Below are positions 1,554 to 43,359 of a stretch of DNA of 64,000 nucleotides, piece by piece. The DNA comes from Paramecium tetraurelia (taxonomy: Eukaryota): NCBI GenBank assembly GCA_000165425.1, contig CT868041.1, positions 1-64,000 on the forward strand, in the 5' to 3' direction. A program made the position numbers and the translations under genes. The notes beneath the pieces were generated by a model. The model was not told the origin of the DNA. It worked only from the letters and a program-made list of their open reading frames with translations, and searched no databases. Within the stretch, counting starts at the first letter, position 1. Each line of letters begins with the position of its first letter.

Positions 1554-1931
1554 NNNNNNNNNNNNNNNNNNNNNNNNNNNNNNNNNNNNNNNNNNNNNNN
1601 NNNNNNNNNNNNNNNNNNNNNNNNNNNNNNNNNNNNNNNNNNNNNNNNNNNNNNNNNNNNNNNNNNNNNNNNNNNNNNNNNNNNNNNNNNNNNNNNNNNN
1701 NNNNNNNNNNNNNNNNNNNNNNNNNNNNNNNNNNNNNNNNNNNNNNNNNNNNNNNNNNNNNNNNNNNNNNNNNNNNNNNNNNNNNNNNNNNNNNNNNNNN
1801 NNNNNNNNNNNNNNNNNNNNNNNNNNNNNNNNNNNNNNNNNNNNNNNNNNNNNNNNNNNNNNNNNNNNNNNNNNNNNNNNNNNNNNNNNNNNNNNNNNNN
1901 NNNNNNNNNNNNNNNNNNNNNNNNNNNNNNN
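1554..1931. other. Assembly gap (run of N)
   Basis: Continuous N from 1554 to 1931. Confidence 0.99.
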
Positions 1932-2199
1932 NGATAATTTAGATAATTTATCGATTATTATGTTGAAAATAATTAGAAATAACAAGTTTCACCTCAAAGA
2001 TAAGTATAGCATAAATTAATAGGATTATATTTTGGAAATATTTTTAGAGATCAGGAATTAATTGACAAACAAAGATGTTTTAAATATCGAGAGAAAGAGA
2101 TATTACCTTAATTAATCGATAATTTGTGTAAAATAATATCTAAGATTCTAAAAGTATCCTGTTTCGAATGATTTTAATATTATATATTTTATTAAATCT

Positions 2200-5100
2200 A
2201 TGGAGATCAATGTTGTAATTTTAAATGGAAAATAAATAAAGATTGAAGTTCAAATAGAGAAGACAACAGTGAATGATATAAAAAAAAAAGTGATGGAAAA
2301 ATCAGGAATTAGATTTGAGGACCTCGTATTAATCTACAATAACCAAATTTTGAAAAATGACTAAACATTAAAGAATAGTGGAATAGATAAGGGTGTGACA
2401 ATAGATGCTGAAACTGCAGATACTCTAACAAAGAAGTATAAGTAGAAAATAGGTATTTGATATAGTCTTAAATCAAGAATTTTTAGAGGAAGAGGTAAAT
2501 AAATGGAGATAAAAATTTAGTGAATAATAGAATTAAAAGGAAGAATTTTAAGAGCAATTAACAAAAGTTACGAACTAGATGGATCAGTATTACTCTTATT
2601 TATAAAATAGAATTAAGAATCAATATTAATAATAAGTAGCAAAGGGTAATGAAATTGAAATTACTAAGTTAAAAGCAACTATTAGTGGATTGGAAATGGA
2701 TAAAACTGAATTATTTCAATAGATATAATATTTTAAATAAGAAAAACTAGATCTTCAATAAAAAGTAGAAGATTTTTTAAAATTGAAAGAGGATTTGATA
2801 GGAAAGACTTATGAAATAAAAGGATTATAGAAAGAATTGGAATATGCTTAAAACCGTGGTAATCAAACCAAAGATGATATAATTAGAGAATTAGATATCT
2901 CAAGATAATAAATTAGGTAATAATAGTCTTGATAAAATCAGGAGATTGGAGCAACAAATAGATGAAGTAAAAACAAAGAATAAAGAGTTGGAAGTGGAGA
3001 AGGTGTAATAATAGATGAAAAGTTTCATTAGTTCTAATTAAAATGAAAAATTGAGTGATTTATAATAATAAAATGCTCACTTAGAGAAGAAACTTGCAGA
3101 ATGTAAGAGTTAGTTACATGGTTTATTTGAATAAGTGAGAACTTTATAAAGTAGAAGGGATGATGAATTGAGAGCTTCCACAAATAGATTAGATCTTGCA
3201 TCTGCAGAAAGGATTTAGGTAAATAGAAATTTAATGGAAATAGAATTTTGAGATGCAAATAAGTAAATTGACTGCAGAAGCGAATTCTTCCAAAAAATCT
3301 TTTGAAGAGAGCTAGATACAGTTAGGAAATGCTAGAAAGCAGTGTTTTGAAAATGATAAAAGGATAATAGAACTGGAGAAGAGTGTGGAAAGTCTTGCTA
3401 ATTAATTAAAAGAGAATAGTCAAGGAATGAAGGAAAAGGAGAAGTTGATAACAGAATTATAAATTTAAAAGGATGAATTACAGAAAGATCTGGACTTATA
3501 TAAAAAGCTTCTGCAGTAGTATAAAAACAATGCTGAAAAGGGAGATCCAAAAAAAATGTCAGAAATGGACATTGAGAATAAAAAATTGGTGGATGCTTTG
3601 AATGCTAGGGAAGAGCAAAGAAACAAAGAATATCAAAGGGAGGAATAATAAAGAAAGAAAGAATTATTGGAAAGATAAGAAAAATTGAAGTAGGAGTAAT
3701 CTAAATAGTAGGATTTAATGTAAAAAAATAAAGAGTAACGATAAAAAACAGCATAATGTAAATGCATTAATAACTTTAGTTTTAAAGAGGTAGATGTTTG
3801 AAAGTCATGGAAAGATTGAGGTTTGTTTTCTGATTGATGTAACAGGATCAATGGATCCATATAAAGAATAGGCAATGATGTGCATAAAAGAGAGTATGAA
3901 GAACATAAAGATAAAGACAAATAGAGATGCTTTATGGGCAACAGTGGCATATCAAGATTTTGAAGAAAGGAAATAATTAGGAGGAAAATACAAGTAACTA
4001 AATTTCACTCCAAATCCTAAAGAAATAGAGGACTATTTATCAGATATTCCTTGCGCTGGAGGCGGGGATGCTGCTGAAGATATAAGAGGAGGCATAACAC
4101 AAATGGTTCAGAATTTGGATTGGAGTAAAAATTTCAAGATTGCTGTTTTGATTTGCGATGCTCCGACCCACGGTAAGAGATATAATGGCGGAGTAGCCGA
4201 TCGATACCCAAATGAAGATATTGAAGATGCTATTAATTTACTTATTGAAAAAAACATTTTATTTGTTGCTATCCTTTTTAATAAGTTTACATTACCAATG
4301 TTTGAAGAAATAAAGAAGATTTATTAAAAGGCAGAAAAAGAGGAATTATTACTATTTGCAGATTTAGAAAATACAGAATAAGGTAAAATTTGGTAGGAAC
4401 TTGTGGATTTGGTTTCTCAAGCATCTTAAAGAGCAACTCAAACAAATAATAAAGGAACAAGATCTAAGTAGGCTGCTGCAAATAAAAGATCATAAACCGG
4501 TGCGATGGAAGCACTTTGCAAATCGATTAAGGATCCATCAAAATTTGACGAATTGCCAGGTGTTAAAACTGTTCTAGTTAAGTTTGGTGTTTATCGTGTT
4601 GAATTAAAATAGGATGCGTTTGAAGGAAATTTGGAAAATATAAGGAGACTCGATATTAATAGGGATTACAGTGTTTATGAAGAAGGAAAATGGGATTGTA
4701 TAAGAACTGAGACGTTCTTTGCAGTAGGTTAAATGAAATAAGTATTTTTAATGAAGAGAATAAGCAACAAAGATGAATTATATGTGATCAAAATGCCACT
4801 TGGAGATACAACTTATAAGAGTTAGGATGAAGCTGTTGTAGAATGCAGATCCCACCTCATTTCAAAATGTTTAATGAAAAAGTATATTAATGAATTGCAA
4901 GAGGCAAGGGACAGAACTGACAGAACAATCAAGATTCCAGATGTTAAATATTCAGACTTTTTAATTTTGAAGGATTTGGCATAGGGAAGTAAGAATTTCC
5001 TTTTATTTTTAGATTCATATTGGATTGCAGAAAGATTCTTTTCTGGCGATTTTGTTAAGTATAATAATAACTATGGTTTTATTTCAGATGAAAATATAGA

Positions 5101-5366
5101 CCTCAATCATTTGGCTTAGGGATACTCCTATTATACATATTTCATTTCAAATTTCAATTATATGGTTAGTGATGTTCAAGGAGTTGGAAATTACTTTACA
5201 GATCCTGCTTTAAATACAAAAGATGGTAATTTATATAAATATTCTAGGTAATTTTGATTTAACTGATATGGGACTTGATGGATAATCTATGTTTATGGTT
5301 GCTTATGGAGGAAAGAAGCATATGGGAAGAAAATACTTGGATTTATTGGGTATACCATAACCATGA
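2200..5366 (+). CDS. Ubiquitin-like domain - long coiled coil - vWA domain - alpha-kinase (eEF2K/MHCK/VwkA family)
   Basis: UBL N-terminus MEINVVILNGKQIKIEVQIEKTTVNDIKKKVMEKSGIRFEDLVLIYNNQILKNDQTLKNSGIDKGVTI; E/K/Q-rich coiled coil ~2450-3760; vWA IEVCFLIDVTGSM, GGGDAAED, ICDAPTHG; kinase FAVGQMK, YVIKMP, AERFFSGDFVKYNNNYG, VSDVQGVGNYFTDP; several ~22-25 nt GTA..AG introns; TGA at 5364-5366. Confidence 0.9.
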
Positions 5367-24188: not shown

Positions 24189-27100
24189 ATGGTAGTAAAC
24201 AAAAGCTCTTAATATTATACCTTATTTGTGATTGCATTTTTCTCTATAGGAGTGCTTTCACAAAAAAAATGCAATATATATCCACATTCTGCATAGGGTT
24301 GCATTTAGAAGACCGAAGGCATTAGATGTAAATGAGCAATAATTACATTTAGGCTAATATGATAATTTTGGCAACAAATGTGTCAATAACATAATGACCA
24401 ATTTAGGTTGTTCTGAATATTTGAATAGCGAGGCATGTTTGAGCTAATTAACTGATGGTTAAAATTAAAGAGTTTAATGTAATTGTATTTGTTATACCAA
24501 GGCATTTTTCATAAGAGGTGTAAGGAAGTAAAGAAGGTCGAATTGATCTAATATGGTTGTTCTGCAATGTTCAACATATTTGCTTGTTTGGATGTAGAGA
24601 AATAGTCCTGTAGTTGGTAGAATAATATATGTTAACCATTAAATCAATCTAAATAAGATAATTCAAATTTTTGTAACATATTCAAAATGCCAGTAAACCC
24701 TTTCACTTGTTCCTAGTTACCATATGGCCTATGTAATAAATTTGTATATGATGTTAGGTATGAGTAGTGGATATGAGGGAAATTTTGAATGTGTGGAAAT
24801 ACCATTATACTAATTATCCTAACTATCGTGTTATGAATTAGGATTAAATGAGGAAGGCTGTTTGGCAATCAATAAATTAAATTAATATTGTATAAACTAA
24901 ATACTAAAATTTAGGCATTTTTTAAGATAATAAATGTACTGAGATCTAATTATCAGAAATCAAATCATGTGAAGACAAGTTTTACCAATCTTTATGTTTG
25001 TCGATTAAAAATCCAGATACAAAGTGCGAGTGGGTTGATAAAAAGTGCAGACAATTTGAGTACAATGCTGAAGTAGAGTGCACTACTAAAAATATGGTGA
25101 ATGCTTCTGTATGTTAAATGTTAGCAGGATCATGTTATTATGATGAGAGCAAACATATATGCATGAATGTAACAAATAAAATTATGAATTCACTAAAATG
25201 TGACACTCCAGGATTATCAAAACAAGCATGTTTATCAATTACCAATTTTAATTGTTCATTTAAAGCAGGTAGATGCTAAGAGTTATCGAAAATTGATCTC
25301 TACTCCTATTAATGTCATATGTAATTGAATAAATAGGCTTGTGTTAATTTATAAACTCCATTCTAGTATTGTTTTTGGACTGGGAGCTATTGTGAAAGAA
25401 GAGTTGTAAATTAAGATTATGATTGTCCTTTAAATTTCAATGATCAACGCATTAGAGTAAATGGAAATGTGTGCTAGGCAATTTCTAAATATAAGACTAA
25501 ATGCAAATATAGTTAATAAACGAATTTATGTATTGAGAGTTCGACAACTGATACTTGTGATACTTTGTTTATTAACAAATTTGGTTGTCTCAGTATTATT
25601 AAAGAGGATGTAGCATGTTAATGGAAAGATTAAGGTTGCAAAGAGGTTAAGGTGATTTAACATTAAACAACATGTGATAGTTTGAGGAGTGCTAATCCAA
25701 TTGCATGTTCTTAAGTTCTTGATTAAAATGAGAATTTAGGTTGTTATTTCGATGAAGTAAAATAATTATGTGCTACCTTATCTGTTTAATTAGATCCTCG
25801 TGCAACTAAATAGGAAGTTCAATAGTATCTCAAGGATTAGGAATTATTGAGAACTATTGTTTGTTAAAATGCATCACTAGGATTAAATAGAATTTCATGT
25901 TCTTCCATAACAACTAAGGATGTAGGGTGTAGATGGTTCAGAAATTAATGTGTTCAAGTTAAAAACCAGAAGGAAATTTAAAAAGTTCCATGTTTGAATC
26001 TATAATATGCAAATTAAAAAGCCTGTTCTTATATAATATATGGAGGGGAAGTGTGTAGATATAATCAAACGATAAAGGGATGTACAAATTCAATTATTCC
26101 TCATATGCAATGTAATGAATTAGGATTAAATTCATTCGGATGCTCAAAAGCAGAAGGCAAGTGTTAATATATTAATGATCAATGTCAATCTTCAAATTTT
26201 TAGACACCAGGAGATGAAGAACAATCCTCCATTGTACAAGATACTCCAATAAAATGCGGAACAACATCTCCTACTAGAAATGCTTGTTTATCTTTTATGT
26301 CTAATTCATTATTATGTTAATGGAAAAAAGGAAGTGATATCTGTGCTGATGTTGAAATCAAAGAGAATTAATATTGTCTAGACTATGCTGGAACTGACAT
26401 ACTTGTTAATTCAAATGTGTGTGCATCTATCATATGTGACTTTCCTGATTATAACTTTTATAAAGGAGTTTAAGTTGATAAAAATAGAGGATATTGTTAA
26501 TATAATAAATAAACAGCCTAATGCACAATTAAAAAGGTATTTTGTAAGACCAATTGTTGTACTGAAACTGAAAATATCGGAATAAATGCCCATTCTTGTA
26601 GCAAATTTTCAACCACTGAACCTGGAGTCTACTGTTACTTTATGGATTTAATATGTTAAGAATTAAGCAATGATATTGTGGATATATCAAATTCAGATTA
26701 GGTTAAATTGTATTATAATGAAAACCACTTACCATGTACTTCTATGAATATTAATTCCTGTCATATGATTGAATGGTCTGTAGGTTAACGTTGCTATCAT
26801 AATGGTATAATCTGCTTAAATATCAATTATATCTACATCAAGGATAATCGTGAACTAACTAAGGAACCCTCCATATTAAATAAGAATGCTTGTTTTGCAA
26901 TTGATGGCCAAATAACTGAATTGAATACACTCAAATATGTTGGATATGATGAAGAAAACAAGAGATGCTTAGAGATTTTAGAGGATCCTCAATATGCTAG
27001 TTGTGAATAAACCTAAGGAAATAGAAATGTCTGTTAAAGATATAATGGTAATAATTATTGTAGATGGAATTCAAACGAGATAAAATGTGTTACAATACCA

Positions 27101-30100
27101 TTAGATGAATATAATGATATATAGGATTGCGATGAAAACCTAAATGTTAAAGCATGTACTGATATTAAGAATAATATTTGTATATTTTCATATAAGACAG
27201 ATAAATGTATTAGGGCTACTGAATTTAATGTGGATTGCAATCACTATGAATAATTGGGTAGTGTTAGTAAGTAAGTATGTGAATAAATCAATAAAATTGG
27301 ATAATCGTGCTAATTTGACAATTATACATGCGTAGATTCAACTTTGATTTCTGAATCTTGTGATGGTTCATCAGCCAACAATAGATCCTGCTTCAAAAAC
27401 ACTAAGGGTTAATGTAGATGGGATCCAAATACTTTTCAATGCTATGTGAATTACACAAAAATAGAGGAGTTGTCATGTTTAGATTTAATAAACATCGAGT
27501 TATGTAAACTAGTAACCAAAGAAACCTGTTTTTGGAATGATGTTACAAATCAATGCGAAATCTTTAACACTATTAGTGCAGCCGATTTTGAAATTCTCAA
27601 TAATACTGGAAATCATAAGTTTACTGAAAAAGGCTGTCTATTAATAACAGGAGATGCATACTATTATGATCAATTATCACAGAAATGTAGTAAATTACTT
27701 ACTAAAACAGCGGATTGCAATGCTTATTAAATGAATAAATATGCTTGTTTATATTATACTCAAAGTCATAATTGTTTTTATGATGAAGAAGAGGTTTTAC
27801 CTAATAATAAATGTAAACCATTTGTGTAAGACTAATCAAAATGTTCAACTTAATGGCAGATTAATATCGAAGTGTGTATGAATATATAACAGACATGCAT
27901 GTTTGATGTGAGTACATTATAATGTTAGCCATTTAAATATGAAGATAGTATGACTTGCTCGAAGTTATCAAATTATTCTTTCAATCTATAGCATCCAAAT
28001 AGAAGAGTTTGTGCCTCTGTTGCTTAAACTTTAGATTAAACTTCAGGAGGATAATTATGTTCTGAAGATAGAGAGAACATTATGAAATGCAAATTCGAAA
28101 AGTATTGTTTTTGGATGAACTATTCTTGTTAAATCTTCAATATTGTATATGATTATATTGAATCAGCTTATGGACAGTAACAACTTCTTAAAGAATGTCC
28201 TGATTTCGAAAAATATGATAATTGCTTTGATGACATCATGAAGAACACAACTTCATATCGTCTAACAAAATAATCAAAAATTGAAAGTACTTGGTCATAA
28301 TTAAATGATACTTGTCATCAAAAAATTATTAAATATACAAGAGAACACCTATATTCTTAAAAATCTAATAATAATATTACTGTATGCAAAATAATTGAAT
28401 GTTCATTTATTGAATAGATCTTTTGTAATATTAATGCAATTTTTGAAACTATCTTTACAATTAATGAAAATACCCCTGATAATTACGATACTTCCAAGAT
28501 AGATACTATGGTCAGTAGTGATCCATTAGATACATGCTAGAATTTTGATTGCTCATCCCAATCTGAAAATACATGTTAAACATAAATTACATAACCTTAT
28601 AATCAAATACGCTAGAATAATTGTATTGTATAAGACACTCATATTTTTAATAATTGGTGTTCATTAATGGAAAATAAAGTTAATATTTGTGATAAAGATT
28701 TTGATAAAGCATTATGCTTAGAATTGAGTCCACACTGTTATTTTGACCTATAATAAGGAGGTTGCAAGTAATTAAAAGGCAATGAACATAACATTGGGGA
28801 TTGTAGTTAAATTGCAAATAATTGCTATGTTAGTTCAAGTCCTAAAGCGATTTGCTAAAATGGAGAATCAAGTATCAAACCAGGTGATAAATGCAAAACA
28901 GTCCAAAAACCCTATTTGACTTGTGTACCACTTACAACATACAATTAACCATTTTCTTGTGCAGCAATAAAAAACTAAGATGTTTAACCTATTTTATGTG
29001 CTAAAGCTAATGATGATTGTAGATATGATGGGAACTAATGTATACATGAAATGCCAACACAAATGGAAAATGGGTTATATCCTTGTGATAGAAGTTTTAG
29101 TTAATCTTTATGTGAAAAATGTGGATGCAACTATACTTTTTAAGGATAATGTTAATAATTTAAGCAAGTACCATTGGTAGATCCAGATAAATCAAATAAA
29201 GACTTTCTGTGTTATCAAGTAAATCTATTAGAAACAACTAATAAATAAGAAATATGCGTAAGTGTTGATTAAGCCTGTGCATTTTCTGAATCTATATGTG
29301 AAGATGCTACCCACTATGAGTGCAATCAACTATTTGAGAATCCTGTTTCATCAAAAGCATGCTTGAAATGTTATGAACATGCAACTAAATATGATGCTAG
29401 TTAATAAAAATGTTTAAACATAGATGATATTCCTAATCAAAACTCTTGTAGCTATCTAAATTAGCTGGCTTGTCTTAAAAAAACTAAAGGAATTAAATGC
29501 AAATGGGATAACTTCGAATGTAAAACAGTATCAATAGATCCAGAAGATAAGATTGAATGCTCTATTTTAAATTACAATGCTTGTTACAGCAAATAAATCA
29601 ATATCTGTTGGATTGATTAAATAACCTCTTTGTGCGTTTATTATAATGAAAATATGGGCAAATGTGAGTTATTACAGACAGAATCTCTTTGTTTAAGGTC
29701 TATGTATGGAAGTTGTTAATGGACTAATGAGAAATGCATTTAGATTAGTAAAATACCTGCAAATACATGTGATAATTTGAATCAATATTCATGTCTGAAT
29801 ACTATAAATATTGCATGTGGATGGTCTACTAAATATGAAAAGTGCTTTAAATTGGAATTCAAACTTAATCCATTACTTTAATGTAATGATATTTTATAGA
29901 GTGATATCGATCGTTTTAATACTTACACTTGTACTGAATTTAAAACACAATCAGGTTGTCTTCACGATTAATATTATAATTGTAGAGAAATCATACCCAC
30001 TGATGTCCTTTCTTGTGAAGTATCATCAATTTATAATGTTAATGAATATGCATGTACTAAATTAACGAAAGGATAGTGTATATTTGTCAATAGAGTATGT

Positions 30101-33100
30101 TAATAAACAACAAATACTAAATTAGGTTGCTTGACTAATTTGAATGAGAAAGCTTGTCTAAAATAAGAAGATGCTTGCAAATTCGATAATTATTGCTAAC
30201 CCCATGTTATAAAATCTCAGAATGATATAAATACTCCATTTTTCTATACAAAAAAATCTTGCGATGAGGCTGATTTCTCGGTCATGTCACCAGATGGAGA
30301 CAGATATATTGGTGTATCTATAATATTTAATGAGGAGTAATAAAAATGTATAGACATCACTAATAAAAATATATAGATTAAGGATTGTACTTATAAAGGA
30401 ATCAATAAGTACGCATGTTTAACAAAGACAAGCTAATATTGTGAATTTGCTGAAAATTAATGCAGACCTATTCAATTCAAAGCAATTTATGCATAAAATA
30501 AATGCGTAACTACTTTAAATTAATATACATGCACAAGATTGAATACACAATGCAAATTTGTTAATTATTAATGCCTCCCTATTTCTGTTAAAGACAATTG
30601 CATAACCTTATCATCAGAAAAATCAGTTGTACAGAATAACATTTGTGAAAATGATCGTGAAGCTCCTTGCATGTTTAATTATAGCACTTAGAATTGTGAA
30701 ATAATTACAACACCTCAAAAATGTGAAGGCCTAAATCGTTGGGGATGCTTATTCCATACACAAGGATCTTATTGTGAAATCAAGAACTAAAAGTGCATTA
30801 AGTCATTTGGTAATAGAAATTGTCTTGATGAAATCAATTATGATAAATGTCTCTCAATAATTACCAAAGGTTAAATGTGTTATTTTGATCCGAAACTTGG
30901 ATGTCGAAACATTGATACTACTAAAGTTGATCTCAATATATGTGATAAAAATGGGTTATCAACAAGCCCAACTACTTGCTCTAAAAGCACTGATGTCCCC
31001 TGTGCTTTTAATAAGTTAAATAAATAATGTGCTCAGTATCCTTTTGTATCCGAATATTAAATAAATGATAGTATTTCTAACATATCTTCATTCAATAAAA
31101 TGACATGTTAAATTTTTAATAAGTCAAAACCTCTTATGTGGTAAGAATCATGCTAAATAGTTTCCAGTTCTTAATTTCTTTATTTAAAATGTAACGCACC
31201 TTTAAATTAAATAGCGTGTTTAAGTATCAAGACTCCTTATTAATTTTGCTAATATAAAAATAATTAATGTATCAATGCTAATCTAGATGATTTTAAAAAT
31301 GTCAAATGTAATACTATAGAAAATATTAATTCTGGTGCTTTTTGTGCTATTAATACTTTAGGCACTGCCTGTAAATTCGATAAGTATTTATTTAAGTGTC
31401 AGGAAATTGAAGATAAATCTATAGTTTGTGTTGAAAAGGATCCAGAAGAGAAAGGAATAAATAAAAAAGGTTGTGAGCTTGACACTGATCGTTGCATTTA
31501 TGATGAGAATTGTTATAAAAAAAATAATAGTGGATATTAATTTTGTAGAGATATTAAAAAAAATGGACAATTTTAATGTAAGGAGGTTACTGGTGAGGGA
31601 TGCATGATTTAATCAGGGAACTGTGTCAAGATTTACTATAATGATTATTCCAAAATTAAATGCGAATAAGCTCTTAATCGATTTGGATGTGTTAACATTC
31701 AAACAGAAGGTCAATATTGCTAATTTGTTGGAGATTAATGCAAATCATAAGATATATCATAATTCAAGGATAATACTTGTTTAAGCATAATAAATATTAA
31801 TAACTATAAATTCTGTGAATAAGCCCAGGACATAGCATGTACATTTGATTTAAAGAATAATCTTTGTAGAAATGTATATCCACAAGAGGAATTCTCTTGT
31901 GAGAGAGGATTGAATAAGATTGCTTGCTTAAATCAAACAAATAAGAGTTTAATGTGTAAGTTCCTTCAATATTGCTATGGTCCAAATAATGGCATTATGA
32001 ATTGTGCTTATAAAGACAAGTAGAGGTGCTGTAAAGAAGCTGGTTCAATTGATACATGTTTGAATTAAAAGATTTACGAGTGTGAATGGACAGCTAATAA
32101 CTGTTAGGCTTTGTAAAATAAAGTGGAAGAGTGTGATTAGATAGTAAATGCTAGTTTTTTAGTTTGTGCTTCTATAAAATAAATACTCTGTGTATTTGTT
32201 CCTACTGAATATAGATGTAAAGCATAGAGTCCAACAACATGTGGTTTCTCATAATCAAGTTAATAATGTAAAAGAATGAAATACCTTTCTTGTATGTGGA
32301 ATTCAGAGGATGAAAGTTGCTCATACTCGGAGGAGTCAACTTATTTAGGTTGTTAATAAGTGTCTGAAAGATCTGGAAACTAAAGAGCCTGCATGAATGT
32401 TGAAGTACAAGGACAGCTGTGTATATACAAGGATGAACAATGTCTACTATTTGTATAAGATGAAGATGTGAATAACTGTTTGGATACAATCAATAAAAAT
32501 GCATGTATTTAACAAACTGTTAGTGATTGTTAATGGGTTGAATAAGTATTTTCAGTCACCAAATCGTAAAACTAGAATTTGGAGGATATTATCTAAGGGG
32601 AATGTAAACCAATCACTAACTTAGATTAAACATCATGCTCTGCTAATATTAGTTATACAGCTTGCTTGAAAATAATTAAGAATGGAGAGCATTGTATTTG
32701 GAAAGATTTGAGATGCTAAACGATAAGTTAATAAGAATTATACACTCCCGAAGAACTTATTTTTGTTAATATAAATGCATGTGGTTTAGTGAATAATGGA
32801 GATACAGTAGGGTATGACCAAGAGTTTAAATATTGTAGGAAAATTATAAATCCTAATGAACTGAGTTGCAAACCTTAAGTATTGGGAATCAACAAAGATG
32901 CATGTTTAGCCATAAAGACTTAATCGTGTATTTGGAATAGCATAGCCAGTAGATGCTAATATTAAGATATCTAGATTGATACTTAATAATTAAATATACA
33001 AAATTTGAATATCATCTCTTGCTCAAAACTAGATATTAATTAACCATATGGATATTCTCTAAAGGGTTGCCAAGATGTTGACATAAATTCAATCACTTGT

Positions 33101-34465
33101 ACTCATGATGGTTTAAATAAATTTGCATGCTTAAATATTAAAAATCACCCTTGTATTTGGAAGTAAAATGTCTAGGATGGTAACTATTATTGTTATGATT
33201 ACACTCCCTACACTTTATGTGAATTGATACCTATCAATGTGAATTCAAAGGTTTGTTAATTGGTTGATCTAGATGCTTGCTATTATGATATCAATAATAA
33301 TAAATGTGAAAATGTCAAGTTACAAACAACGAATTGTGATACTGTAGGTTTAAATCCCCTAGGTTGTATTAAGATTGATGATTGTGTATTCTAAGAATAT
33401 TGTCAACGAGTAACAAAACAATTTTATGATTGCAATGAATATCCTATTGCAAATTATAAAGTGTGTATGAATGCCATTGATAGTTGTAAATTCAATGAAT
33501 TAACCTCTGGATGTTCTCAAGCAAAAGAAGAATTATGTGAAACTAAAGGGTTAAGTATGTAAGGTTGTCAATCAAGTCAATGTACATGGATCAATAATTA
33601 ATGTTAATGCAATAGTATTAAAGAATATGACTGCAATTAAATTAAAACACAGAAATAATGTGATTCACTTAGTCATTGTAAATATGATAAGGTTTAGAAT
33701 TAGTGTAGATGGAAATAATGCGAGGATTAACCTGCTAGCTCTTGTGATGGTTTAGAATTTCATTAATTCTACTGTTATACAGACACTTCCTAATTATGCA
33801 AATCTGCTGAATAATGTGAAGATATTAAGAGTCCAAACTCTTAAAATTGTCCATAATTACATGATAAATTATGCATTTTTAATTCAGAATTAAACTAATG
33901 TTAAACGCTTAATTGTGAAATACTTGAAGAATAACAATGCTTAAGTTATCCAAATTATTGCATATTTAGTTAGACTTGCAAATTTTTAGGATGTAATTAT
34001 ACTACATAATTCAATTGTGCTTGTAGATATTTGCCAAATACACCTTAATGTAATGGAGTTTAAGTGAATGATCAATTCTGCGTCGAATTAACTGATAGTA
34101 CTTGCGTATCATGCGAGGAAATATCAAGTCCTTGCATCTGTCATTAAAACCATCAATTTTGTTAGTATAGTTTTACAGAAATGAAGTGTTAATCCAAGAT
34201 TTGCAAGAACTTTATCGAACAACAAAATTGTCCAGAATAATATTGTGATTTTCTTAATTAAAATGTAATATTTAGTATATTTAAATAGTGTGTTTAAAAA
34301 TGTTAGTATATTCAACAACAAAGTTAATGTGAAAGTAATGATTGCATATGGTCAGATAATTAGTGCAAATTAAATGAGAAAACTGGTAACTCCACTGATA
34401 TAGTAGTTAGCTCATGGGGGTTGATAGAATTAGTGGAATTAAGTATGTTGATTCTGAATTTATGA
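24189..34465 (+). CDS. Giant (~3,400 aa) cysteine-rich secreted/surface protein with signal peptide and C-terminal hydrophobic, GPI-like signal
   Basis: Signal MVVNKSSQYYTLFVIAFFSIGVLSQ; dozens of LNxxxC..CxW/F...C repeats; introns 24328-24352, 24890-24914 and ~34265-34289; tail SSWGLIELVELSMLILNL*. Confidence 0.88.
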
Positions 34466-36429: not shown

Positions 36430-36920
36430 ATGGATAGAAAATACTAGGAATTAGTTGATAAAAAGGCATTTTTAGACAACGAATTGAAAAATCTAGAGAA
36501 AAGCATATTTGATAATGAGACTAAATATTTAGAGGACACAGCATTCACTGGAAATGTAATAAAAGGATGGGATGGATATTTAAGCATGAAAAATACAAAA
36601 GCCAATGCTGCTTTACAAAGAAAAAGTAAATCAAGCCAAAATGATCGGATATTTTCATTAAGTAGTAAAACATCACCTTTTGTGCAGGAAGTGACCACTT
36701 AAAATTAGATTACTAATCCAACTAAATAAGTGAATGCTGAAGTAAGTGGAGAAGATAACAAATATCATTTCAGAAGAACAAAAAAGAAAAAGTATGCTGG
36801 GTTTCAAAAAAAGTAATTGTTGAATAAAATATATTTAGTGATCAAGGAGCTCATACACCTCAAAGCTCAAGTGATGAATATTAGGCAGAGAAAAAAATTA
36901 AGATTTCCAAAAAAATATGA
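36430..36920 (+). CDS. EAF6: NuA4 histone acetyltransferase subunit Eaf6/MEAF6
   Basis: ELVDKKAFLDNELKNLEKSIFDNETKYLEDTAFTGNVIKGWDGYL...DRIFSLSSKTS matches the Eaf6 signature. Confidence 0.9.
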
Positions 36921-37128
36921 ATTTAAAGATAAATGTCTTGCTATATATACTAAATATTATTAATAATTTTTGTTTAATAATTGATTGACTCATATTTTTA
37001 GGATATTATTTAATTATCATTTAAGTAATATTTATTCAAAGTTTAGAATATTGGTATTTTATTACTAAAATATAAATAATATTAAAAGTGTAGGTCTACT
37101 AAAGCATTATTATTATATACAAAATAGA

Positions 37129-39840
37129 TCATTAATTGTTGCAACAAATAAAAATTCCTTCCTTATACTCCTATTCTGATAGAATTTATTTGAATTAGTA
37201 TTAGGATTTACAAACTTAACAATGTAAAACTTGTAAGTATTAATATCCGCTTTTACAAACGTATTAACTGAATTCCCCAATCTATTTTAAATTTAACCAA
37301 CAATGACTCAAGCAGTATAAACATCTATTTTGCCTAAGACAACAATTGATTTTACAAAATTTACAATAACCATAAACAGTCAATGACAGTAGATCCTCAT
37401 TTGGATCATGATGATACATTTATGAACAGCATCTACATATTGCATCTATTGGTTGTTTTTCTAAATCTCTGCAAATATCACATTTAATCTCTTTCATTTG
37501 TTTATATTAATCCAATGAATATAACCTTTATTATGAACATGTTTCACATAATATTGATATCATCTGATGATCTTGAATGTTCCAAAAAAGATGATCAATT
37601 TATGGATTTGCTATTGAAAAGTTCTTCCTACTTAAATTAAGTTTTTAGCATACAATACTACATTTTTCATGCTATTTTTATAGGAAAGTCATTATTCCAA
37701 TTTATTTTTAATTGGTTGGATCTTTTTCTAAGAGTGGAATCATACCATCTGCAGATTAAATAGAAGCATCAGTCAATATGTTATTAGATCCTTACAAATC
37801 CAAAACTACAAGGGTTCCTTCTGTTTCTGTATAAGTGAAATGACTGAAAGCAGAGTAGAAATAAAATTGTGGCGATGTAAAAGCACCGTTTGTTGAATAT
37901 TTCTTCCATTAAAACTTGGCTGAATCTATGAAAGTCTCTGCATATAATAGGTTTAATCCATAAAAGGGAATATCCAAAGTGTAAAGAATAGGAGATACGT
38001 AAAAGATTGGAGGTATTTCATCAAAACCCTTTGTCAATTCTCTAAATAGAAATGCTAACTAGCTTGCGTGAGCAGCAACATAATACCTAGATTTTGCTAG
38101 CTCTTCTGCAATTTTGATATCTTCCTCAGTTAGTTGATTGTCTAAATACTTTTTAACGTGCTCTTTTGATAGTTTTACAGCCATAAATCTATTATTTAAA
38201 GCATCAAAAATTTTAAAAACACAAGTATTGGTATGATCTAAGTAATTTTTATTGTAATTTGAATAGTTTTGTACATTTATCTTAGTGATTTCTGGTTCTT
38301 AATTGATTTCTAAGGCAGTCACTCCTTATCTTTGAAATTAATCAACAATATCAATAAATTATGTCCAAAACAATGACTTTTTTATTTGTGCTTCAGAGAA
38401 TTGATAATTAATTATTTTTGGTTTAATAAATTTAGCTCCAGAGTAAAATTTCTAAGTTGTTTTTGGAAACATTGATCTATTGATACTCTTAGTAATTGAT
38501 GATTCAATTGCGAATTTAACAAGAGTAGGAAAATCATCAGGCTAGCTCTTTCTAGTTATCATAATGTCAGGAAATACATCTTGCATTTTATTAAACATGA
38601 TGTCAGTTGAATTTCTGATTTTAAAGCAGGTGAAAAAGCTAAGATTCTTGGCCTCTTTATATTTTAATATGATATTTTCTAAATGACCTTATTCTACTGC
38701 ATCACTCTGATCATCTGATATTTCGTCGGAGTGATATTGATTTCCATGACAAGGAGCATCAGTGATTAAGAATGTACATAAAATACTGTCTGGGTGTCTT
38801 GATATATTTAAATTCAATCCTTATTCCAATGCTGTAACAATATCTTCTGCCTAATCCCCACCTCCTTGAGCTACCTATTTTGAAATTACTTTAATTATCT
38901 CTTCAAAGTTTTCTGTTAAACATCTATACACCAACTATTCCTCTTCATCACAAGTATCTCTATATCCTACAAACCCTATTCTCACTCCATACCCATTGAT
39001 CTTTTCTTTAAATTGATATATTAGTTTGGCAATTTACTTTTTAATAGCTTCCAACCAACGATTCATCGACTTTGTCAAATCTAAAATGAAGATCACATCT
39101 ATGATATTTGATTGATGGATTTCCCTTTAAAAGTTTATCAACTTTTCCTTTTCACATACTTATTGAATTTCAAAGCGCTTTGCATTTTCGAGAAAATCTA
39201 TAAAACTATTTCCTTGTATTTTACTGGTACATGGCAAAAGTTATTATTTTTAACAAGAAATTTAGTTAATGTGTTCCCAATCACAATGTTGTTTTAAGCA
39301 TATCTTATTTGGGCAATTTCCTTGGAGATATTTTAAACATAAGTTTTAAAATCCTTCTAAATGATAAGGGCAATTACATTATTCATTTTCACAAATATTC
39401 TCTGGGTTAATTTAGGCAACATTATATTAAGTGTACACTTCTCTTCTAAGTTTGTCCCATTACACATGTCTATTTTCACAATTCTTATTTTTGCATATTT
39501 TTATTAAATTACTCAAGCATATGCCTTAAGCCCATTTTCTATGAATGAATTTACACAAACCCTATTAACAAATATTGTGTGGGCATAAATTAAAACCCCA
39601 CACTCCATTTATTGGAGATATTTATAACAATAAGTGGACTTTTTCTAGATTGAAATGATAAAGTGTGCATTAGTCATCGGAGCATTTTTTGTTTGCTTAA
39701 CAAGATTCTTCGTCCTCAAGATCCTTTTTCAGATATTCCAAACACAGGCCTACGTATTTTCTTTAGTGACTTGACTAACAATCCTCATCAGGACAAAATA
39801 TTGTGTTGTTACATAGATCGATTATATTTTCAAAATTCAT
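37129..39840 (-). CDS. Tandem CCCH zinc fingers - vWA - alpha-kinase - C-terminal Cys-rich zinc region (~903 aa, apparently intronless)
   Basis: CCCH units CNNTIFCPDEDCQSSH, CQANKKCSDDQCTLYH, CPHNICQQGLCKFIH, CLSNLIKICKNKNCENRH, CLKYLQGNCPNKICLKQH; vWA DVIFILDLTKSM, GGGDQAED, TDAPCHG; kinase MAVKL, YAETF, KKYSTNG, AFSHFTY, VVLDLQG, LTDASI, QHEKCSIVC; 2712 nt = 904 codons. Confidence 0.9.
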
Positions 39841-40249: not shown

Positions 40250-41703
40250 ATGATTTATAGACCTTTACTCATTGAAACTTGTTAATATAAATATCGAATG
40301 GGGAGTGAGGAAAAATCCTTCTCCATAAAAAAAAAAGTTGATTACTATCCTTTCTTTAGATAAAAGGTTAGTCAATCATTTCACATTGAACCTCTTACAG
40401 CAGATAAAAAGAGATCAAAAAGATAACTGACATTGAATCCAAAATTAGGAAATTCGGATATTAATATACAATAATATATTGAGTTTAATGTATAAATTTG
40501 AAGAAATTAGATTAAAGAACAGCCTTTGAATACTCAAACCAACAAAAGAGTCAGAAAACTTATTATATAGGATAATAAACTATTAAGAAAATAAAATAAG
40601 ATTAATGTTTTTGCTGAAATTGCGACATAAAAGCACAAATCATATCATTAGCAACAAATAAAAAAGCAGGTTACAACAATGTTGGATTAGGGGTAGCTTT
40701 TTAGAAAGGTTGAAAGTCCTTAAATGAGTGCAAAAGCCTAATAAAAAGAATAATAAAAATAATTAGAATTTCAATCAAAAACATAATAAAATAATGCAGA
40801 ACAATAAATACAGGATAAGGTTCAAAATTATTTATCCAGAAAGAGTGTACATCTCTAACGACTCTCTCAAAGGATGGACGATATTAATGTATCCAAAGGA
40901 TCCATTATATAGACAAGTTCAGCTGAAAGAGATTTGAAAATTTCCTCCACTTTTTTCAAAGACTTTATAGGAGTATCTCAATAATTAAAAAATAAAGAGA
41001 AATAAGATCCAGAATTGTTAAAGGAATCCTATAAATATTGGGCATAAGCCATAAGAACAAAAAAGGACCCGTTAAAGAAGAGGAAGGTTGGAGCAGTATT
41101 TAGTACATCAATAAGAGTGAAACTTGAAAAAATGAGAGCTTTAATTTTAGATTGTGTCAAAAAATTGAGATTTATGAAACTGGATCCTGAATAGTTAATG
41201 TAAAGTAGAACAATATTAAAACAACCTTATTAAAGAGAGGGATCCTATGTATTTTTTAAAGGGGTGACTAAAAACGATTTAGATTTGGTAAAATTGATGC
41301 TTGATAAGTGCAGATTTTATGCTTTTGATGTAAACGAGAATTTTCAAACAGCCTTACATGTTTGTGCTAGGAAAGGGTACTTATAAATAGCAAAGCTATT
41401 GTTTCAACTTGGAACTTATCCTGATGTAAGGGATGTCAGCAACAGAACTCCACTCTATTATGCACTTATAAACAATTAAAAAGAATTAGTATAACTATTG
41501 TTATCACATAAATGTAATCCTTGGTCATTTCCTGGTTGTACCTATGAAACTGATGATCCAGTGCTTACAAAAATGCTAAAAATAGCTAGGAGAGTATATA
41601 TTCAATTATATAAGTGTAGCTTGATATGTTGTTACTGATGACCCCCTATAATACGAGATAGTCAACTTGGATCAATTATTGTAGAGTTTTCTATGAATTT
41701 TGA
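40250..41703 (+). CDS. Ankyrin-repeat protein with low-complexity N-terminus (tandem paralog A)
   Basis: QTALHVCARKGYLQIAKLLFQLG, NRTPLYYALINNQKELVQLLL; N-terminus MIYRPLLIETCQYKY. Confidence 0.85.
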
Positions 41704-41717
41704 TTATATATATTTAA

Positions 41718-43359
41718 ATGAGTAAATTCAACTATGTTTTCAAGCCTTTGTTCATTGATACTTTTGAATATAGCTATATGGATGGAAAGACTGAGAAGTC
41801 GTTTACAATAAAAACAAAAACCTCTGGTAGAGAAGAGAAGAGTGTAATATAGAAGAGCGAACCTATTGCCCAATTTAACGTATTTGATTATTTTATGATG
41901 GGAAGAATGAAACCATTAAAAAGAGTCATAAGAAAGCTCGAACAAGCAGATAAATGAAATAATCCTCTAAGAGTAGAAACTATACAATAAATTCTAATAC
42001 TCCTAAAAATGGAATTAGGTAGATTGAAAGTAGGATAGAGGATGAATTTGAAATTTCAGGTAGGAGAAACTCATTTGATAAGAGATGTACTAACAAACCT
42101 CAATTAAATTATCTAAATTTTAATGTACTCATTACTTATCATAGTAGTTAAATAGATAGCAATTATGAATGGGTAAACAAGCAATTTATTTCCAAGAACA
42201 TAAGAATTAATAAATAGGGACAATAAAATTATGAGGAGAAAGACTGTTGAAACTTCTAAAGTCCCCACCATTACAGAAAATGAGATTTAATAATTTGAAC
42301 GTTTAGAAAATTAACATCCTTAAGATATCAAAGAAAAGGTTGGTAGGATGTTTGCAATTAGTAAAAGGTGCACAACTACATATAATCCAATAAGAAAGAA
42401 AAGCAAGGAGAGGGAGGCATTTACAAGAAACCTACAATTTCTCGAAGAATCTTTTCAACAATCAGTGGCTCCAGAGAAAAAACTATAAGCAGTCATATAA
42501 TAATATTTTGATAAGAAAAAATCATTTTTAGAAGAGAAGGCAAAGGAAGAAGAAATTTAATTAAGAGAATTATCAGAAGAAACCTCTAGGATTCGCTCGG
42601 GTTAAAGCAAAATGAGGATATCAACAACTTTTTTAAAAAGATTCATCCATTAAGTTGAGAAGGATAAATAGAAAAATAATGAATAATAAATAGAAACTCA
42701 AAAGAGTTTTATTTAATCAATTAAATCATCGTAGATAAATAAAAGAAGATAGAATGCTATATATAGCGGACAAGTACAATCGTTATTCAAAAAGATGTTT
42801 CATTTAATTGTTGATTGCGTTAAAAAGATGAAATAAATGAAACTTACAATAAAAGAATTATTCCAACATGGAGTGATTTAAAAGAAACCTTATGAAAGAG
42901 AAGGATCTTTTTAGTTTTTTGAAGCTGTTGAACTCAACAACTATGGTCTCATTACTTTTATGCTCCAAAAATGCAGATATTATGCCTTTGACATTAATGA
43001 ATAAGGACAAAATCCTTTACATGTGAGTTCAACACTAGGACATTATGCAATAACCTAAAAATTGCTATAATGTGGGTCCTATCCTGATTCATAAGATCTC
43101 AATGGCTATTCTCCACTCTATTATGCTGTTTAATCCCAAAATATCTAAATAGTCTAAGTGTTACTATACTATAATGCTAATCCTTGGTCAAATAGTAAAT
43201 ATAAACTGGAGAGTCAAAATGCTGAAATAGGGAGGTTGTTGAAATAATCGAGAAAAGTATGAGTATGTGTTATTGTAGATTCATTTATTACTTTTATTAA
43301 CCAGACATCCAGATAGAGAACAGATATGGATCGATTCAAGAGAATCTTTGTTATCTTGA
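41718..43359 (+). CDS. Ankyrin-repeat protein with low-complexity N-terminus (tandem paralog B)
   Basis: GQNPLHVSSTLGHYAITQKLL, GYSPLYYAV; shares LIVDCVKKM, PYEREGS, KCRYYAFD, NPWS and the N-terminal KPLFIDTFEY block with paralog A. Confidence 0.85.

Follow-up and report, generated by a model that had tools for sequence, protein, structure and literature searches.

A Paramecium vWA–alpha-kinase with CCCH-type finger modules and a rewired cleft as a candidate RNA- or RNP-tethered enzyme

Why would an alpha-kinase carry an array of zinc fingers, and could that array couple the enzyme to RNA? The question is raised by a gene on the minus strand (37129..39840) of a 64,000-nucleotide stretch of Paramecium tetraurelia DNA, which we call the window. 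An earlier note, made from the letters alone, had read this gene as a single intronless fusion of CCCH fingers, a vWA domain, an alpha-kinase and a CxxC-rich tail, and had proposed that it encodes an RNA-sensing kinase, possibly a PKR-like one. Throughout, the query protein is the product of 37129..39840 (-), residue numbers are those of this protein, and the rows of the Paramecium group or clade are those of a 16-row alignment of its relatives.

Gene model and expression

The coding sequence runs for 903 codons and closes with a TGA stop (37129-37131) in the ciliate code. Translation of the minus strand with table 6 gave one open reading frame of 903 amino acids, in which TAA or TAG is read as glutamine at 54 codons, and no intron was detected. 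An annotated P. primaurelia protein, P0002 (903 amino acids), aligns with the query protein over 688/888 identities (77%) and 0 gaps, and is its closest orthologue. The gap-free alignment supports both the intronless model and the same start for the query frame. In-frame GTA...TAG intron candidates were rejected on the basis of this ungapped alignment and of the lack of joints in the RNA. Poly-A reads from three oligo-dT runs are sparse over the gene (depth below 1x in three libraries whose condition is not stated) and are oriented as transcripts of the minus strand should be. No splice joints were seen in them, at a coverage too thin to exclude small introns, and a small-RNA run yielded four reads at the gene, which fit in part and are uninformative.

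Might this be an artefact or a dead gene, with a frame that is long simply because no codon other than TGA ends it? Antisense and overlapping frames of 100-219 amino acids are also open in this region under code 6, and expression is very low. Against these points stand the 903-codon frame itself, orthologues and paralogues in five or more named Paramecium species, two significant Pfam domains and dozens of Cys, His and catalytic positions without variation: the 16 relatives share an overall identity of 29-78%, yet their ligand and catalytic residues are invariant. We regard the artefact as effectively refuted and conclude that this is a functional, intronless gene of the aurelia complex that is weakly transcribed. 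The single, apparently intronless frame of the earlier note thus stands, in code 6 and collinear with P0002.

Zinc modules around a vWA domain

We found that the N-terminus is best described as three two-finger modules. Module 1 (aa 10-62; 39655..39813, minus strand, as for all features below) contains finger F1 (C10/C16/C21/H25) and finger F2 (C33...C53/C58/H62), which has an acidic insert of about 12 residues; its ligands are kept in 15-16/16 relatives. Module 2 (aa 86-128; 39457..39585) contains F3 (C86/C91/C96/H100) and F4 (C108/C116/C121/H125), with invariant W103 and W128. Module 3 (aa 150-188; 39277..39393) pairs a degenerate F5 (C150/C155/C157/H160), whose ligand set is kept in 11/16 relatives, with F6 (C168/C176/C181/H185), which is followed by W188. 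The motif spacings in order are C10-x5-C-x4-C-x3-H25, C47-x5-C53-x4-C58-x3-H62, C86-x4-C-x4-C-x3-H100, C108-x7-C-x4-C-x3-H125, the degenerate C150-x4-C-x-C-x2-H160 and C168-x7-C-x4-C-x3-H185. Fingers are paired through short 7-residue links, and an invariant Trp lies three residues past the His in F3, F4 and F6. A CCCH regular expression matched five times in residues 1-205; of 20,000 composition-preserving shuffles, none had two or more matches and 735 had one. The five complete C-x4-8-C-x4-C-x3-H sets have ligands kept in 14-16/16 rows. Although the regular expression takes C47 as the first Cys of F2, we rejected this residue as a ligand: it is present in 1/16 relatives, whereas C33 is present in 16/16 and falls in register with C108 and C168 in the profile alignment. 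About six fingers with one degenerate, as first noted, is therefore borne out, with the first Cys of the second finger moved to C33. Comparisons between the modules with hhalign gave 96.3% (1 versus 2, E 1.7e-9), 97.5% (2 versus 3, E 7.2e-12) and 81.5%. Together, these data show that the N-terminus consists of three mutually homologous two-finger modules, with five fingers complete and one degenerate.

The finger next to the vWA domain, F6, is found family-wide in this position and aligns with the CCCH fingers of relatives that are recognized by Pfam (hhalign 93.7%, E 1.9e-7). In P0011, P0012, P0038, P0040, P0047 and P0168 this pre-vWA finger passes Pfam CCCH models (PF00642, PF18044 or PF18345). 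The family profile weakly matches MBNL fingers in the PDB (E 0.0013 and 0.0019), and ESM Atlas searches with the N-terminus returned mostly zf-CCCH clusters at scores of 0.75-0.82, which we treat as leads only. A single-sequence PDB search with the N-terminus found a match at chance level (E 0.16), and a word-index search recovered the query protein itself and P0002 only.

Three observations on the fingers speak against an RNA reading. Pfam CCCH families gave no match at E≤1 over the whole query protein or at E≤10 over residues 1-215. A search of the Paramecium proteins with an HMM of the relatives' finger gave no significant full-sequence E-value, with a best domain i-E of 6.2e-05 and an i-E of 0.33 on F6 of the query protein. 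Two residues past the third Cys, an RNA-stacking position, F6 has a Lys where AT-rich outgroup fingers have a Tyr.

The vWA domain (aa 246-430; 38551..39105) is supported by Pfam VWA_4 and by conservation. VWA_4 (PF25106) matches residues 250-368 with E 5e-08 and 33.1 bits, above its cut-off of 27. The MIDAS-like residues are D254-x-T256-x-S258 and D361, so that DxTxS stands in place of DxSxS; D254 is missing from one of the 16 rows and D361 from none. A MIDAS has been described as having two Asp at the ends of strands 1 and 4 (PMC7159879), and D254 and D361 would occupy these two places. The match above the Pfam cut-off and the retention of both Asp agree with the MIDAS-type vWA first proposed. 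Family signatures include GGGD329xxE332D333 and D361-A-P363-C-H365-G, and profile searches gave weak matches to integrin beta-8. The segment that follows (aa 431-535; 38236..38550) is poorly conserved, with 16-26% identity to deep paralogues compared with 36-46% for the kinase, and has no significant Pfam match.

Beyond the kinase, the long tail contains six CxxC motifs in residues 765-877, as had been noticed at the outset. Tail units 1-2 (aa 765-829; 37354..37548), formed by C765xxC768...C787xxC790 and C802xxC805...C826xxC829, occur family-wide: their Cys are invariant or at least 90% conserved over 39 sequences, and are kept in 16/16 rows of the Paramecium group. Units 3-4 (aa 833-900; 37141..37344), with C840xxC843, C847, C862, C874xxC877, C899 and C900, are likewise found in 16/16 Paramecium rows and are absent from most outgroup rows; we assign them to the Paramecium group only. 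The unit from C874 to C900 aligns with a unit of P0042 that matches PF13451 zf_Tbcl (1.5e-6). Searches with the tails of the query protein and eight relatives found no significant Pfam family (DZR_2 only at E 0.24-1.1), and ESM Atlas gave no usable match for the tail. The CxxC units of the tail are zinc-ribbon-like.

A rewired alpha-kinase cleft

The alpha-kinase domain (aa 536-735; 37636..38235) matches Pfam Alpha_kinase (PF02816) over residues 561-731 with E 1.2e-25 and 91.1 bits (cut-off 21.3); over the whole query protein, Pfam at E≤1 gave nothing beyond Alpha_kinase and three vWA families, and NCBIfam gave 0 matches. Against the PDB, the family profile found MHCK A (5.2e-46), eEF2K (1.2e-44), ALPK1 (1.6e-35) and TRPM7 (5.4e-32). 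In alpha-kinases, roles have been assigned to the catalytic Lys (Lys645 of MHCK-A), to the Asp and Gln of DxQG and to Asp766 (PMC4876393 and PMC2827801). All residues of the catalytic K/E/D/Q/D set listed in the earlier note could be placed by alignment with solved alpha-kinases: K556, E635, D681 and Q683 (in D681-L-Q683-G684) and D691. Across the Paramecium clade, K556, D681 and Q683 do not vary in any of the 16 rows, D691 is retained in 14/16, the hinge Glu is invariant in 16/16, and so is the zinc site of the C-lobe that the earlier note had also listed (H667, H724, C727 and C731), which has the spacing H-x2-C-x3-C instead of the usual H-x-C-x3-C.

The cleft departs from the alpha-kinase pattern in a coupled way. 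The column of the P-loop Arg (MHCK-A Arg592) is T539 in the query protein and non-basic in 16/16 Paramecium rows, whereas it is Arg in 20/22 non-Paramecium rows. Conversely, the acidic column of alpha-C (the Asp663 equivalent) is R585 in the query protein and Arg or Lys in 15/16 Paramecium rows, compared with Asp or Glu in 21/23 elsewhere; the two non-Paramecium exceptions, P0039 and P0035, also show the charge swap. It is possible that R585 on alpha-C compensates for the absent P-loop Arg, and the coupling of the two changes suggests compensation more than decay. The Gly-rich N/D-loop has been reduced to N710 and G715 with an insert of 4-5 residues, and a Gly-rich GXGXXG-like motif was not found there. 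The degeneracy reported earlier for a Gly-rich P-loop (YLDHTNTCVF) is real, but the name was misplaced: the Gly-rich motif of alpha-kinases lies in a C-terminal loop and not in the P-loop (PMC2827801).

These changes allow another reading, in which the protein is a pseudokinase scaffold whose rewired cleft transfers no phosphate, leaving a zinc-finger and vWA adaptor. Consistent with it, a P-loop Arg described as the 'invariant basic residue' of alpha-kinases (PMC4876393) is lost in 16/16 rows, little of the N/D-loop is left, two of the 16 rows, P0002 among them, have Asn at the Asp766 position, and Pfam kinase scores in the Paramecium clade are 73-107 bits compared with 150-188 for most other family members scanned. 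However, the Lys, the Asp and Gln of DxQG, the hinge Glu and the zinc ligands are complete in all rows despite a domain identity of 36-46% to deep paralogues, and the charge swap has the look of compensation, so we consider a pseudokinase quite unlikely. From the conserved catalytic residues and the swap, we infer that the kinase is active rather than decayed. The absent P-loop Arg and the Asn of P0002 at the D691 position remain observations against an active enzyme.

A family of vWA–alpha-kinases and a possible link to RNA

The order CCCH, vWA, alpha-kinase and CxxC tail also occurs in non-Paramecium relatives, which we label as other protists because of how far their sequences diverge and because one transcript carries an MMETSP label. 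The layout is not ciliate-specific, because non-Paramecium proteins share it. In a quick IQ-TREE run, the Paramecium group fell inside the vWA–alpha-kinase set, and we place the query protein in a clade of VwkA-type vWA–alpha-kinases that has expanded in Paramecium. Comparison of these sequences shows that the ancestral layout, found in other protists too, had one or two CCCH fingers before a VWA_4-type vWA, then an alpha-kinase and, last, a double zinc tail of the form CxxC...CxxC. It also shows what changed in Paramecium: the finger multiplied until there were three modules of two, the tail acquired two further zinc units, and in the cleft the basic residue left the P-loop for the alpha-C helix and the Gly-rich N/D-loop disappeared, with the Lys, Asp and Gln remaining invariant. 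The vWA–alpha-kinase core in ciliates is already in print (PMC2827801 and PMC3019232). No description of its fusion to CCCH fingers was found in the literature that could be searched, in line with the earlier statement that this architecture was not known to have been characterized.

RNA-binding-type domains recur on this core. P0058 has a vWA, a kinase and a C-terminal Nab2-type zf-CCCH_2 array (3.8e-14); P0109 has a vWA, a kinase and RRM_1 (1.6e-16); P0184 has a vWA, a kinase and a C-terminal CCCH/Torus; and P0197 combines TROVE with a vWA of the same type and vWA_Ro60. Such domains were found in 7/106 scanned non-Paramecium representatives, with the regular-expression pattern alone in nine more. 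Most family representatives are plain two-domain proteins, and fusions of this vWA type to a UBC E2 domain and to HSP70 also occur. The Nab2-type array and the RRM were acquired independently by other vWA–alpha-kinases.

The reading that we favour, with a probability of roughly 45%, is that of an RNA- or RNP-tethered VwkA-type alpha-kinase. The CCCH array would hold the enzyme on single-stranded RNA or on an RNP, an acidic peptide of a protein partner would dock on the MIDAS face of the vWA domain, and the alpha-kinase, still active, would phosphorylate itself and/or proteins of the tethering RNP; we therefore propose that RNA may localize or gate the kinase. The link to RNA is favoured indirectly, by the homology of F6 to Pfam-positive CCCH fingers and by the RNA domains on related kinases. 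Of the RNA-sensing kinase first suggested, this link is what is supported, and indirectly, through finger homology and the relatives with a Nab2-type array or RRM, whereas activation by RNA is unsupported.

Alternatively, the protein may be a VwkA-like regulator without an RNA role, whose zinc modules are protein-protein or membrane-cortex adaptors and whose kinase helps to control contractile vacuoles, the Golgi or the cytoskeleton, as has been proposed for Dictyostelium VwkA, perhaps in response to Ca2+/calmodulin. The order of vWA and kinase is that of VwkA, which is found on contractile vacuoles and the Golgi, phosphorylates itself and affects the level of myosin II (PMC2827801), and is activated by Ca2+/CaM (PMC1420674). 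The prevalence of two-domain representatives and the Paramecium fingers that Pfam passes over also fit this alternative. However, unrelated RNA modules (CCCH at either end, the Nab2-type array, RRM and TROVE) recur on the vWA or vWA-kinase core, the finger spacings are those of Nab2 and MBNL types, and the family profile has its weak MBNL match; on balance we think this alternative somewhat unlikely. Only a minority of the family carries an RNA-binding-type domain, and the one relative that has been studied, Dictyostelium VwkA, has been tied to contractile vacuoles and to the amount of myosin II rather than to RNA (PMC2827801); both observations speak against an RNA reading.

A more far-reaching proposal is a PKR-like innate sensor, in which viral, symbiont or small RNA switches the kinase on and leads to translation shutdown or genome surveillance. 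It can draw on the general evidence for an RNA link and on a lead from giant viruses, and we found nothing else in support of the antiviral or small-RNA surveillance role that had been suggested. Giant-virus contigs encode a vWA of the same type without a kinase at seven loci, four of them stand-alone (256-372 aa), and this vWA matches the family vWA at 99.9% (hhalign, E 1.9e-36); such kinase-less proteins may serve as decoys for a host pathway. Against the proposal, Pfam found neither a dsRNA-binding motif nor a eukaryotic protein kinase domain in the query protein, and CCCH fingers bind single-stranded RNA. A PADLOC search gave 0 matches, poly-A depth is below 1x in the three libraries, and the similarity to eEF2K covers the catalytic domain only, with no other eEF2K-type domain found. 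We judge such a sensor improbable, and just as improbable the broader idea that vWA–alpha-kinases are a eukaryote-wide class of RNA- or RNP-coupled kinases, with the Paramecium CCCH clade as a rewired surveillance or antiviral arm and the viral vWA copies as docking decoys.

To our knowledge, only a handful of alpha-kinases have a known function (eEF2K, TRPM6/7, ALPK1 and the MHCKs), and we know of no direct substrate of VwkA. The recurrent RNA-binding modules on the vWA–alpha-kinase core offer a testable lead to the role of a widespread protist kinase family. The change of P-loop Arg to Thr and of alpha-C Asp to Arg, with catalytic residues intact, is a natural experiment on a supposedly invariant residue, and may reveal how an alpha-kinase can rebuild its nucleotide pocket and autoinhibition network. 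Because genes can be silenced in Paramecium by feeding RNAi, this one is open to experiment.

Among known systems, PKR (dsRBD and eIF2-alpha kinase) has in common with the query protein only nucleic-acid modules N-terminal to a kinase; both the kinase superfamily and the RNA-binding fold differ, so this is analogy and not membership. Ro60/TROVE is connected through P0197, which lacks a kinase and has TROVE next to a family-type vWA (hhalign 99.9%, E 2.3e-37); the query protein has no TROVE domain. The finger arrays of Nab2/ZC3H14 and MBNL have the same spacings as F1 (C-x5-C-x4-C-x3-H) and as F4 and F6 (C-x7-C-x4-C-x3-H), and MBNL1 and an MBNL-like chain are the weak profile matches; the query fingers differ in going unmatched by Pfam CCCH and in the invariant Trp after F3, F4 and F6, and their RNA binding is putative. 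The accessory parts of eEF2K are a calmodulin-binding N-terminus and C-terminal helical repeats; Pfam at E≤1 found no such accessory domain in the query protein, and the PDB match covers the catalytic domain only. With MHCK A, TRPM7 ChaK, eEF2K and ALPK1, the query protein aligns at the catalytic Lys, the DxQG Asp and Gln, the second Asp, the hinge Glu and the His/His/Cys/Cys site. It differs from these solved enzymes in its Thr and Arg at the Arg592 and Asp663 equivalents, in an insert of about 11 residues before alpha-C, in an N/D-loop that reads ILExDxTNxKxxG and not FGxGNLGxxG, and in its H-x2-C zinc motif, and Pfam found no CaM-binding, SEL1, WD40 or channel domain in it. Closest in plan are Dictyostelium VwkA and the vWA–alpha-kinases of Tetrahymena, Paramecium, fungi and oomycetes, in which, as in the query protein, the vWA is N-terminal to the alpha-kinase. 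VwkA, compared here by its published description, has its kinase at the extreme C-terminus, and zinc fingers are not mentioned in that description (PMC2827801); the query protein is without the P-loop Arg and adds six CCCH-type fingers and a zinc tail of about 140 residues.

Gene model and neighbouring genes

The region at 37129..39840 on the minus strand of the window is a real gene. Translated in the ciliate code (table 6), it forms one open reading frame of 903 codons that ends at a TGA stop and in which 54 in-frame TAA/TAG codons are read as Gln; its GC content is 0.25-0.33, against about 0.19-0.22 in both flanks. The raw translation aligned without a gap to an annotated 903-residue protein of P. 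primaurelia (P0002, CAD8051061.1; 688/888 identities), and the start, the end and the absence of introns therefore match an independent gene model. A scan for in-frame introns of the form GTA...TAG yielded unconvincing candidates only. On both counts, the apparently intronless frame described in the earlier note holds up. In three oligo-dT RNA-seq runs with the same species label, for which the growth condition is not given, depth over the gene was at most 0.96 in any 147-base bin, and reads fell in roughly 8-10 of its 18 bins per run. The first mate was on the plus strand in all of these reads, which is the polarity expected from a stranded library for a minus-strand mRNA; the well-expressed plus-strand neighbour at 36430..36984 had first mates on the minus strand only. 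No read joints were found in the kinase gene in the three runs, but reads this sparse would not by themselves rule out a small intron.

That convergent neighbour (36430..36984, +; RNA depth 5-25) encodes a NuA4/EAF6 subunit (PF09340, 9.1e-26), and loose ends of reads at 36839 point to a small intron, so that the C-terminal part of its raw reading frame is probably not true protein. The 3,230-codon reading frame at 24773..34465 (+) specifies a repetitive protein very rich in Cys, whose C terminus is hydrophobic and for which Pfam had no match at E ≤ 1e-3; it may resemble the large ciliate surface proteins with periodically spaced Cys. The ankyrin-repeat genes at 40679..41638 and 42009..43262 (both +) are neighbours and paralogues with a C-terminal sequence pattern in common, which suggests a tandem duplication. 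Within another apparent reading frame lies an assembly gap of 379 N (1554..1932). The window also holds a second, simpler vWA-alpha-kinase gene at 3794..5257 (+). Its 487-residue frame matched VWA_4 at 2.4e-05, under the Pfam cut-off, and Alpha_kinase at 1.6e-36 over profile positions 2-162 of 185, and its P-loop reads G-Q-M-K. The frame ends short of the zinc-site part of the kinase, and the next frame runs on but lacks the usual His/Cys motif; a short intron or a divergent end may be the reason.

Finger array and vWA domain

By pattern search, residues 1-205 contain five complete C-x4-8-C-x4-C-x3-H sets and one degenerate set at 150-160, which we refer to as fingers F1 to F6. Of 20,000 shuffles of these residues, 735 gave a single match and none gave more. 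In an alignment of 16 Paramecium-group proteins, 29-78% identical to the studied protein, the ligands of F1 (C10, C16, C21, H25), F3 (C86, C91, C96, H100) and F6 (C168, C176, C181, H185) are kept in 16/16, those of F4 (C108, C116, C121, H125) in 14-16 and those of the degenerate F5 (C150, C155, C157, H160) in 11. C47, which the earlier note had taken as the first ligand of F2, occurs in one of the 16 proteins, whereas C33 occurs in all of them; in profile-profile alignment, C33 is in register with C108 and C168, and F2 has an acidic insert of about 12 residues.

Profile-profile alignment of segments 6-68, 82-132 and 146-192 (modules 1, 2 and 3) gave 96.3% (E 1.7e-9) for modules 1 and 2, 97.5% (E 7.2e-12) for 2 and 3, and 81.5% (E 1.1e-5) for 1 and 3, which shows the segments to be homologous, putative two-finger modules. 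Each has a short finger (x5 or x4 / x4 / x3), seven residues and a longer finger (x7 or more / x4 / x3), and a Trp three residues past the His of F3, F4 and F6 is invariant among the 16 proteins. None of the Pfam CCCH models matched the fingers, not even when the N terminus was searched alone at E ≤ 10; we assign them to the CCCH class because of their homology to a finger of their relatives. In an alignment of 39 family members, F6 aligns with the single finger directly preceding the vWA domain in non-Paramecium relatives (93.7%, E 1.9e-7, profile against profile), and in P0011, P0012, P0038, P0040, P0047 and P0168 the latter finger passes zf-CCCH, zf-CCCH_4 or zf_CCCH_4. Two further comparisons are leads only: a plain HMM of the relatives' finger reached F6 much more weakly (i-E 0.33), and language-model look-alikes of residues 1-215 were mostly zf-CCCH clusters, with scores of only 0.75-0.82. 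The profile of the 39 members also gave weak matches to an MBNL-like chain and to MBNL1 zinc fingers (0.0013 and 0.0019). Judged by these alignments, the protein carries a triplicated array of predicted two-finger CCCH-type modules, homologous to the bona fide CCCH finger of its relatives.

A VWA_4 domain spans residues 250-368 (E 5e-08, 33.1 bits, cut-off 27). It has the MIDAS-type residues D254-x-T256-x-S258 and D361 and the family-wide signatures GGGD329-x-x-E332-D333 and D361-A-P363-C-H365-G. D329, E332, D333, P363 and H365 are invariant in all 39 sequences, D254, T256 and D361 reach at least 90% conservation, and the family profile weakly matched integrin beta-8 (0.0067-0.0099). In the account of the vWA fold in PMC7159879, an extended peptide is bound through a Mg2+ held by two Asp, one at the end of strand 1 and the other at the end of strand 4; here the domain may dock a protein partner through its MIDAS face.

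Relatives and possible function

Identity is highest, at 77-78%, to proteins of P. primaurelia and P. pentaurelia, followed by P. sonneborni at about 60%, with deeper paralogues (29-40%) in P. primaurelia, P. sonneborni, P. tetraurelia and P. octaurelia; all Paramecium relatives are of like length and layout. In a quick IQ-TREE analysis of the 39 sequences, the 16 Paramecium rows comprise eight or more deep lineages and all fall to the same side of a branch with an SH-aLRT of 89, and the branch joining them to P0039 and P0035 had a support of 100. Exhaustive phmmer searching at E ≤ 1e-3 returned 3,563 representatives, of which 844 reached E ≤ 1e-10 and 15 reached E ≤ 1e-30; for most, the match lay in the vWA domain (residues about 230-425).

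We ran Pfam on 106 non-Paramecium proteins among 150 listed representatives (77 of the 106 only to E ≤ 1e-5), leaving out 33 rows shorter than 450 aa, eight Paramecium-group rows and P0018. An RNA-binding-type domain was found in seven. Five of these have an N-terminal CCCH finger (P0011, P0038, P0040, P0047 and P0168), and the finger-vWA-kinase-tail layout occurs outside Paramecium too. The other two are vWA-alpha-kinases with a module after the kinase, namely a Nab2-type zf-CCCH_2 array in P0058 (863 aa; 3.8e-14, six fingers by pattern) and RRM_1 in P0109 (1093 aa; 1.6e-16). Nine further representatives have CCCH by pattern only, and the rest are mostly plain vWA and kinase, of 500-700 aa. 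Word-index searches added P0012 and P0181, with N-terminal CCCH, and P0184, with C-terminal CCCH/Torus. The same vWA type occurs with a UBC E2 domain (P0190) and with HSP70 (P0061). It also occurs in a Ro60-like EukProt record (P0197, 811 aa) that has TROVE at 42-378, a vWA of the type found in the family of Dictyostelium VwkA at 493-704 (hhalign to the family vWA 99.9%, E 2.3e-37) and vWA_Ro60 at 703-806, and thus two vWA domains of different type behind the RNA-binding ring of TROVE. In the literature outside subscription journals, we found no description of an alpha-kinase fused to a CCCH or other zinc-finger or RNA-binding module plus a vWA, nothing relevant on a fusion with an RNA recognition motif, and no alpha-kinase with TROVE among the matches listed.

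The class and spacing of the fingers suggest that they may bind RNA, as does the repeated acquisition by the core of unrelated RNA-binding modules in independent fusions. We give a probability of about 0.45 to a kinase tethered to RNA or RNP. Seven giant-virus-type IMG/VR contigs encode a VWA_4-type vWA like that of the kinase family without a kinase: four proteins stand alone (256-372 aa) and three, of 749-762 aa, have two MIDAS-like motifs. Two of the genes lie at L001:2977-3855 (+; hhalign to the family vWA 99.9%, E 1.9e-36) and L003:2878-3825 (+). These viral homologues are the sole additional hint of the PKR-like antiviral kinase proposed in the earlier note, a special case of the RNA-tethered kinase that we consider very unlikely. 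A VwkA-like role without RNA is somewhat unlikely. VwkA, with its vWA at 121-233 and its kinase at 398-592 at the extreme C terminus, is described in PMC2827801 as autophosphorylating, sitting at the contractile vacuole and Golgi and affecting myosin II indirectly, and in PMC1420674 as activated by Ca2+/CaM. Eight similar vWA-alpha-kinases in Tetrahymena are mentioned in PMC2827801, and alpha kinases of P. tetraurelia, some with vWA, in PMC3019232.

Zinc tail and kinase cleft

Alpha_kinase matched residues 561-731 (E 1.2e-25, 91.1 bits, cut-off 21.3); no other, unrelated Pfam family matched the whole protein at E ≤ 1, and the protein is a member of both the alpha-kinase and the VWA_4 family. 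The single sequence matched the TRPM7 kinase domain (1ia9) in the C-lobe only (E 1.9e-06), and the 39-member profile matched MHCK A (5.2e-46), eEF2K (1.2e-44), ALPK1 (1.6e-35) and TRPM7 (5.4e-32). In the tail, C765/C768, C787/C790, C802/C805 and C826/C829 are each either invariant or conserved in at least 90% of the 39 sequences; these first four CxxC pairs form two putative CxxC...CxxC units common to the whole family. A further eight Cys (C840, C843, C847, C862, C874, C877, C899 and C900) are present in every one of the 16 Paramecium rows but missing from most others. Pfam gave no significant family for the tails of the studied protein and eight relatives; a third tail unit in one relative, P0042, which aligns with the C874-C900 unit, matched the treble clef zf_Tbcl (PF13451, 1.5e-6). 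The protein has a conserved, predicted zinc tail.

All 16 Paramecium rows have K556, E635, H667, D681, Q683, G684, H724, C727 and C731, and D691 is kept in 14, with Asn in P0002 and P0026. By alignment to MHCK A and TRPM7, the conserved residues comprise the catalytic Lys, the Asp and Gln of DxQG, the second catalytic Asp and the zinc ligands, whose roles are treated in PMC2827801 and PMC4876393. The predicted cleft has been specifically remodelled in the Paramecium clade. MHCK A has the P-loop EGALR, whose Arg592 is called an 'invariant basic residue' in PMC4876393, and other family members have G-x-M-R, whereas the Paramecium group differs at the Arg column: Arg is present in 20 of the 22 non-Paramecium rows with a residue there, and T, S, I, C or A in all 16 Paramecium rows (T539 here). 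The alpha-C column corresponding to Asp663 of MHCK A is D or E in 21 of 23 non-Paramecium rows, and R or K in 15 of 16 Paramecium rows (R585 here), with Trp in one. The two exceptions outside Paramecium, P0039 and P0035, form the sister branch in the tree and carry both changes. Because the catalytic residues are preserved and the charge swap is coupled, the cleft is probably rewired but working, not decayed. The kinase may be active, and a pseudokinase scaffold seems quite unlikely. The degenerate Gly-rich P-loop of the earlier note was correctly placed but merged two distinct motifs; in PMC2827801, the alpha-kinase Gly-rich motif lies outside the P-loop. Compared with other alpha-kinases, the Paramecium group has ILExDxTNxKxxG in place of the Gly-rich N/D-loop FGxGNLGxxG, a zinc motif one residue longer and an insert of about 11 residues ahead of alpha-C.
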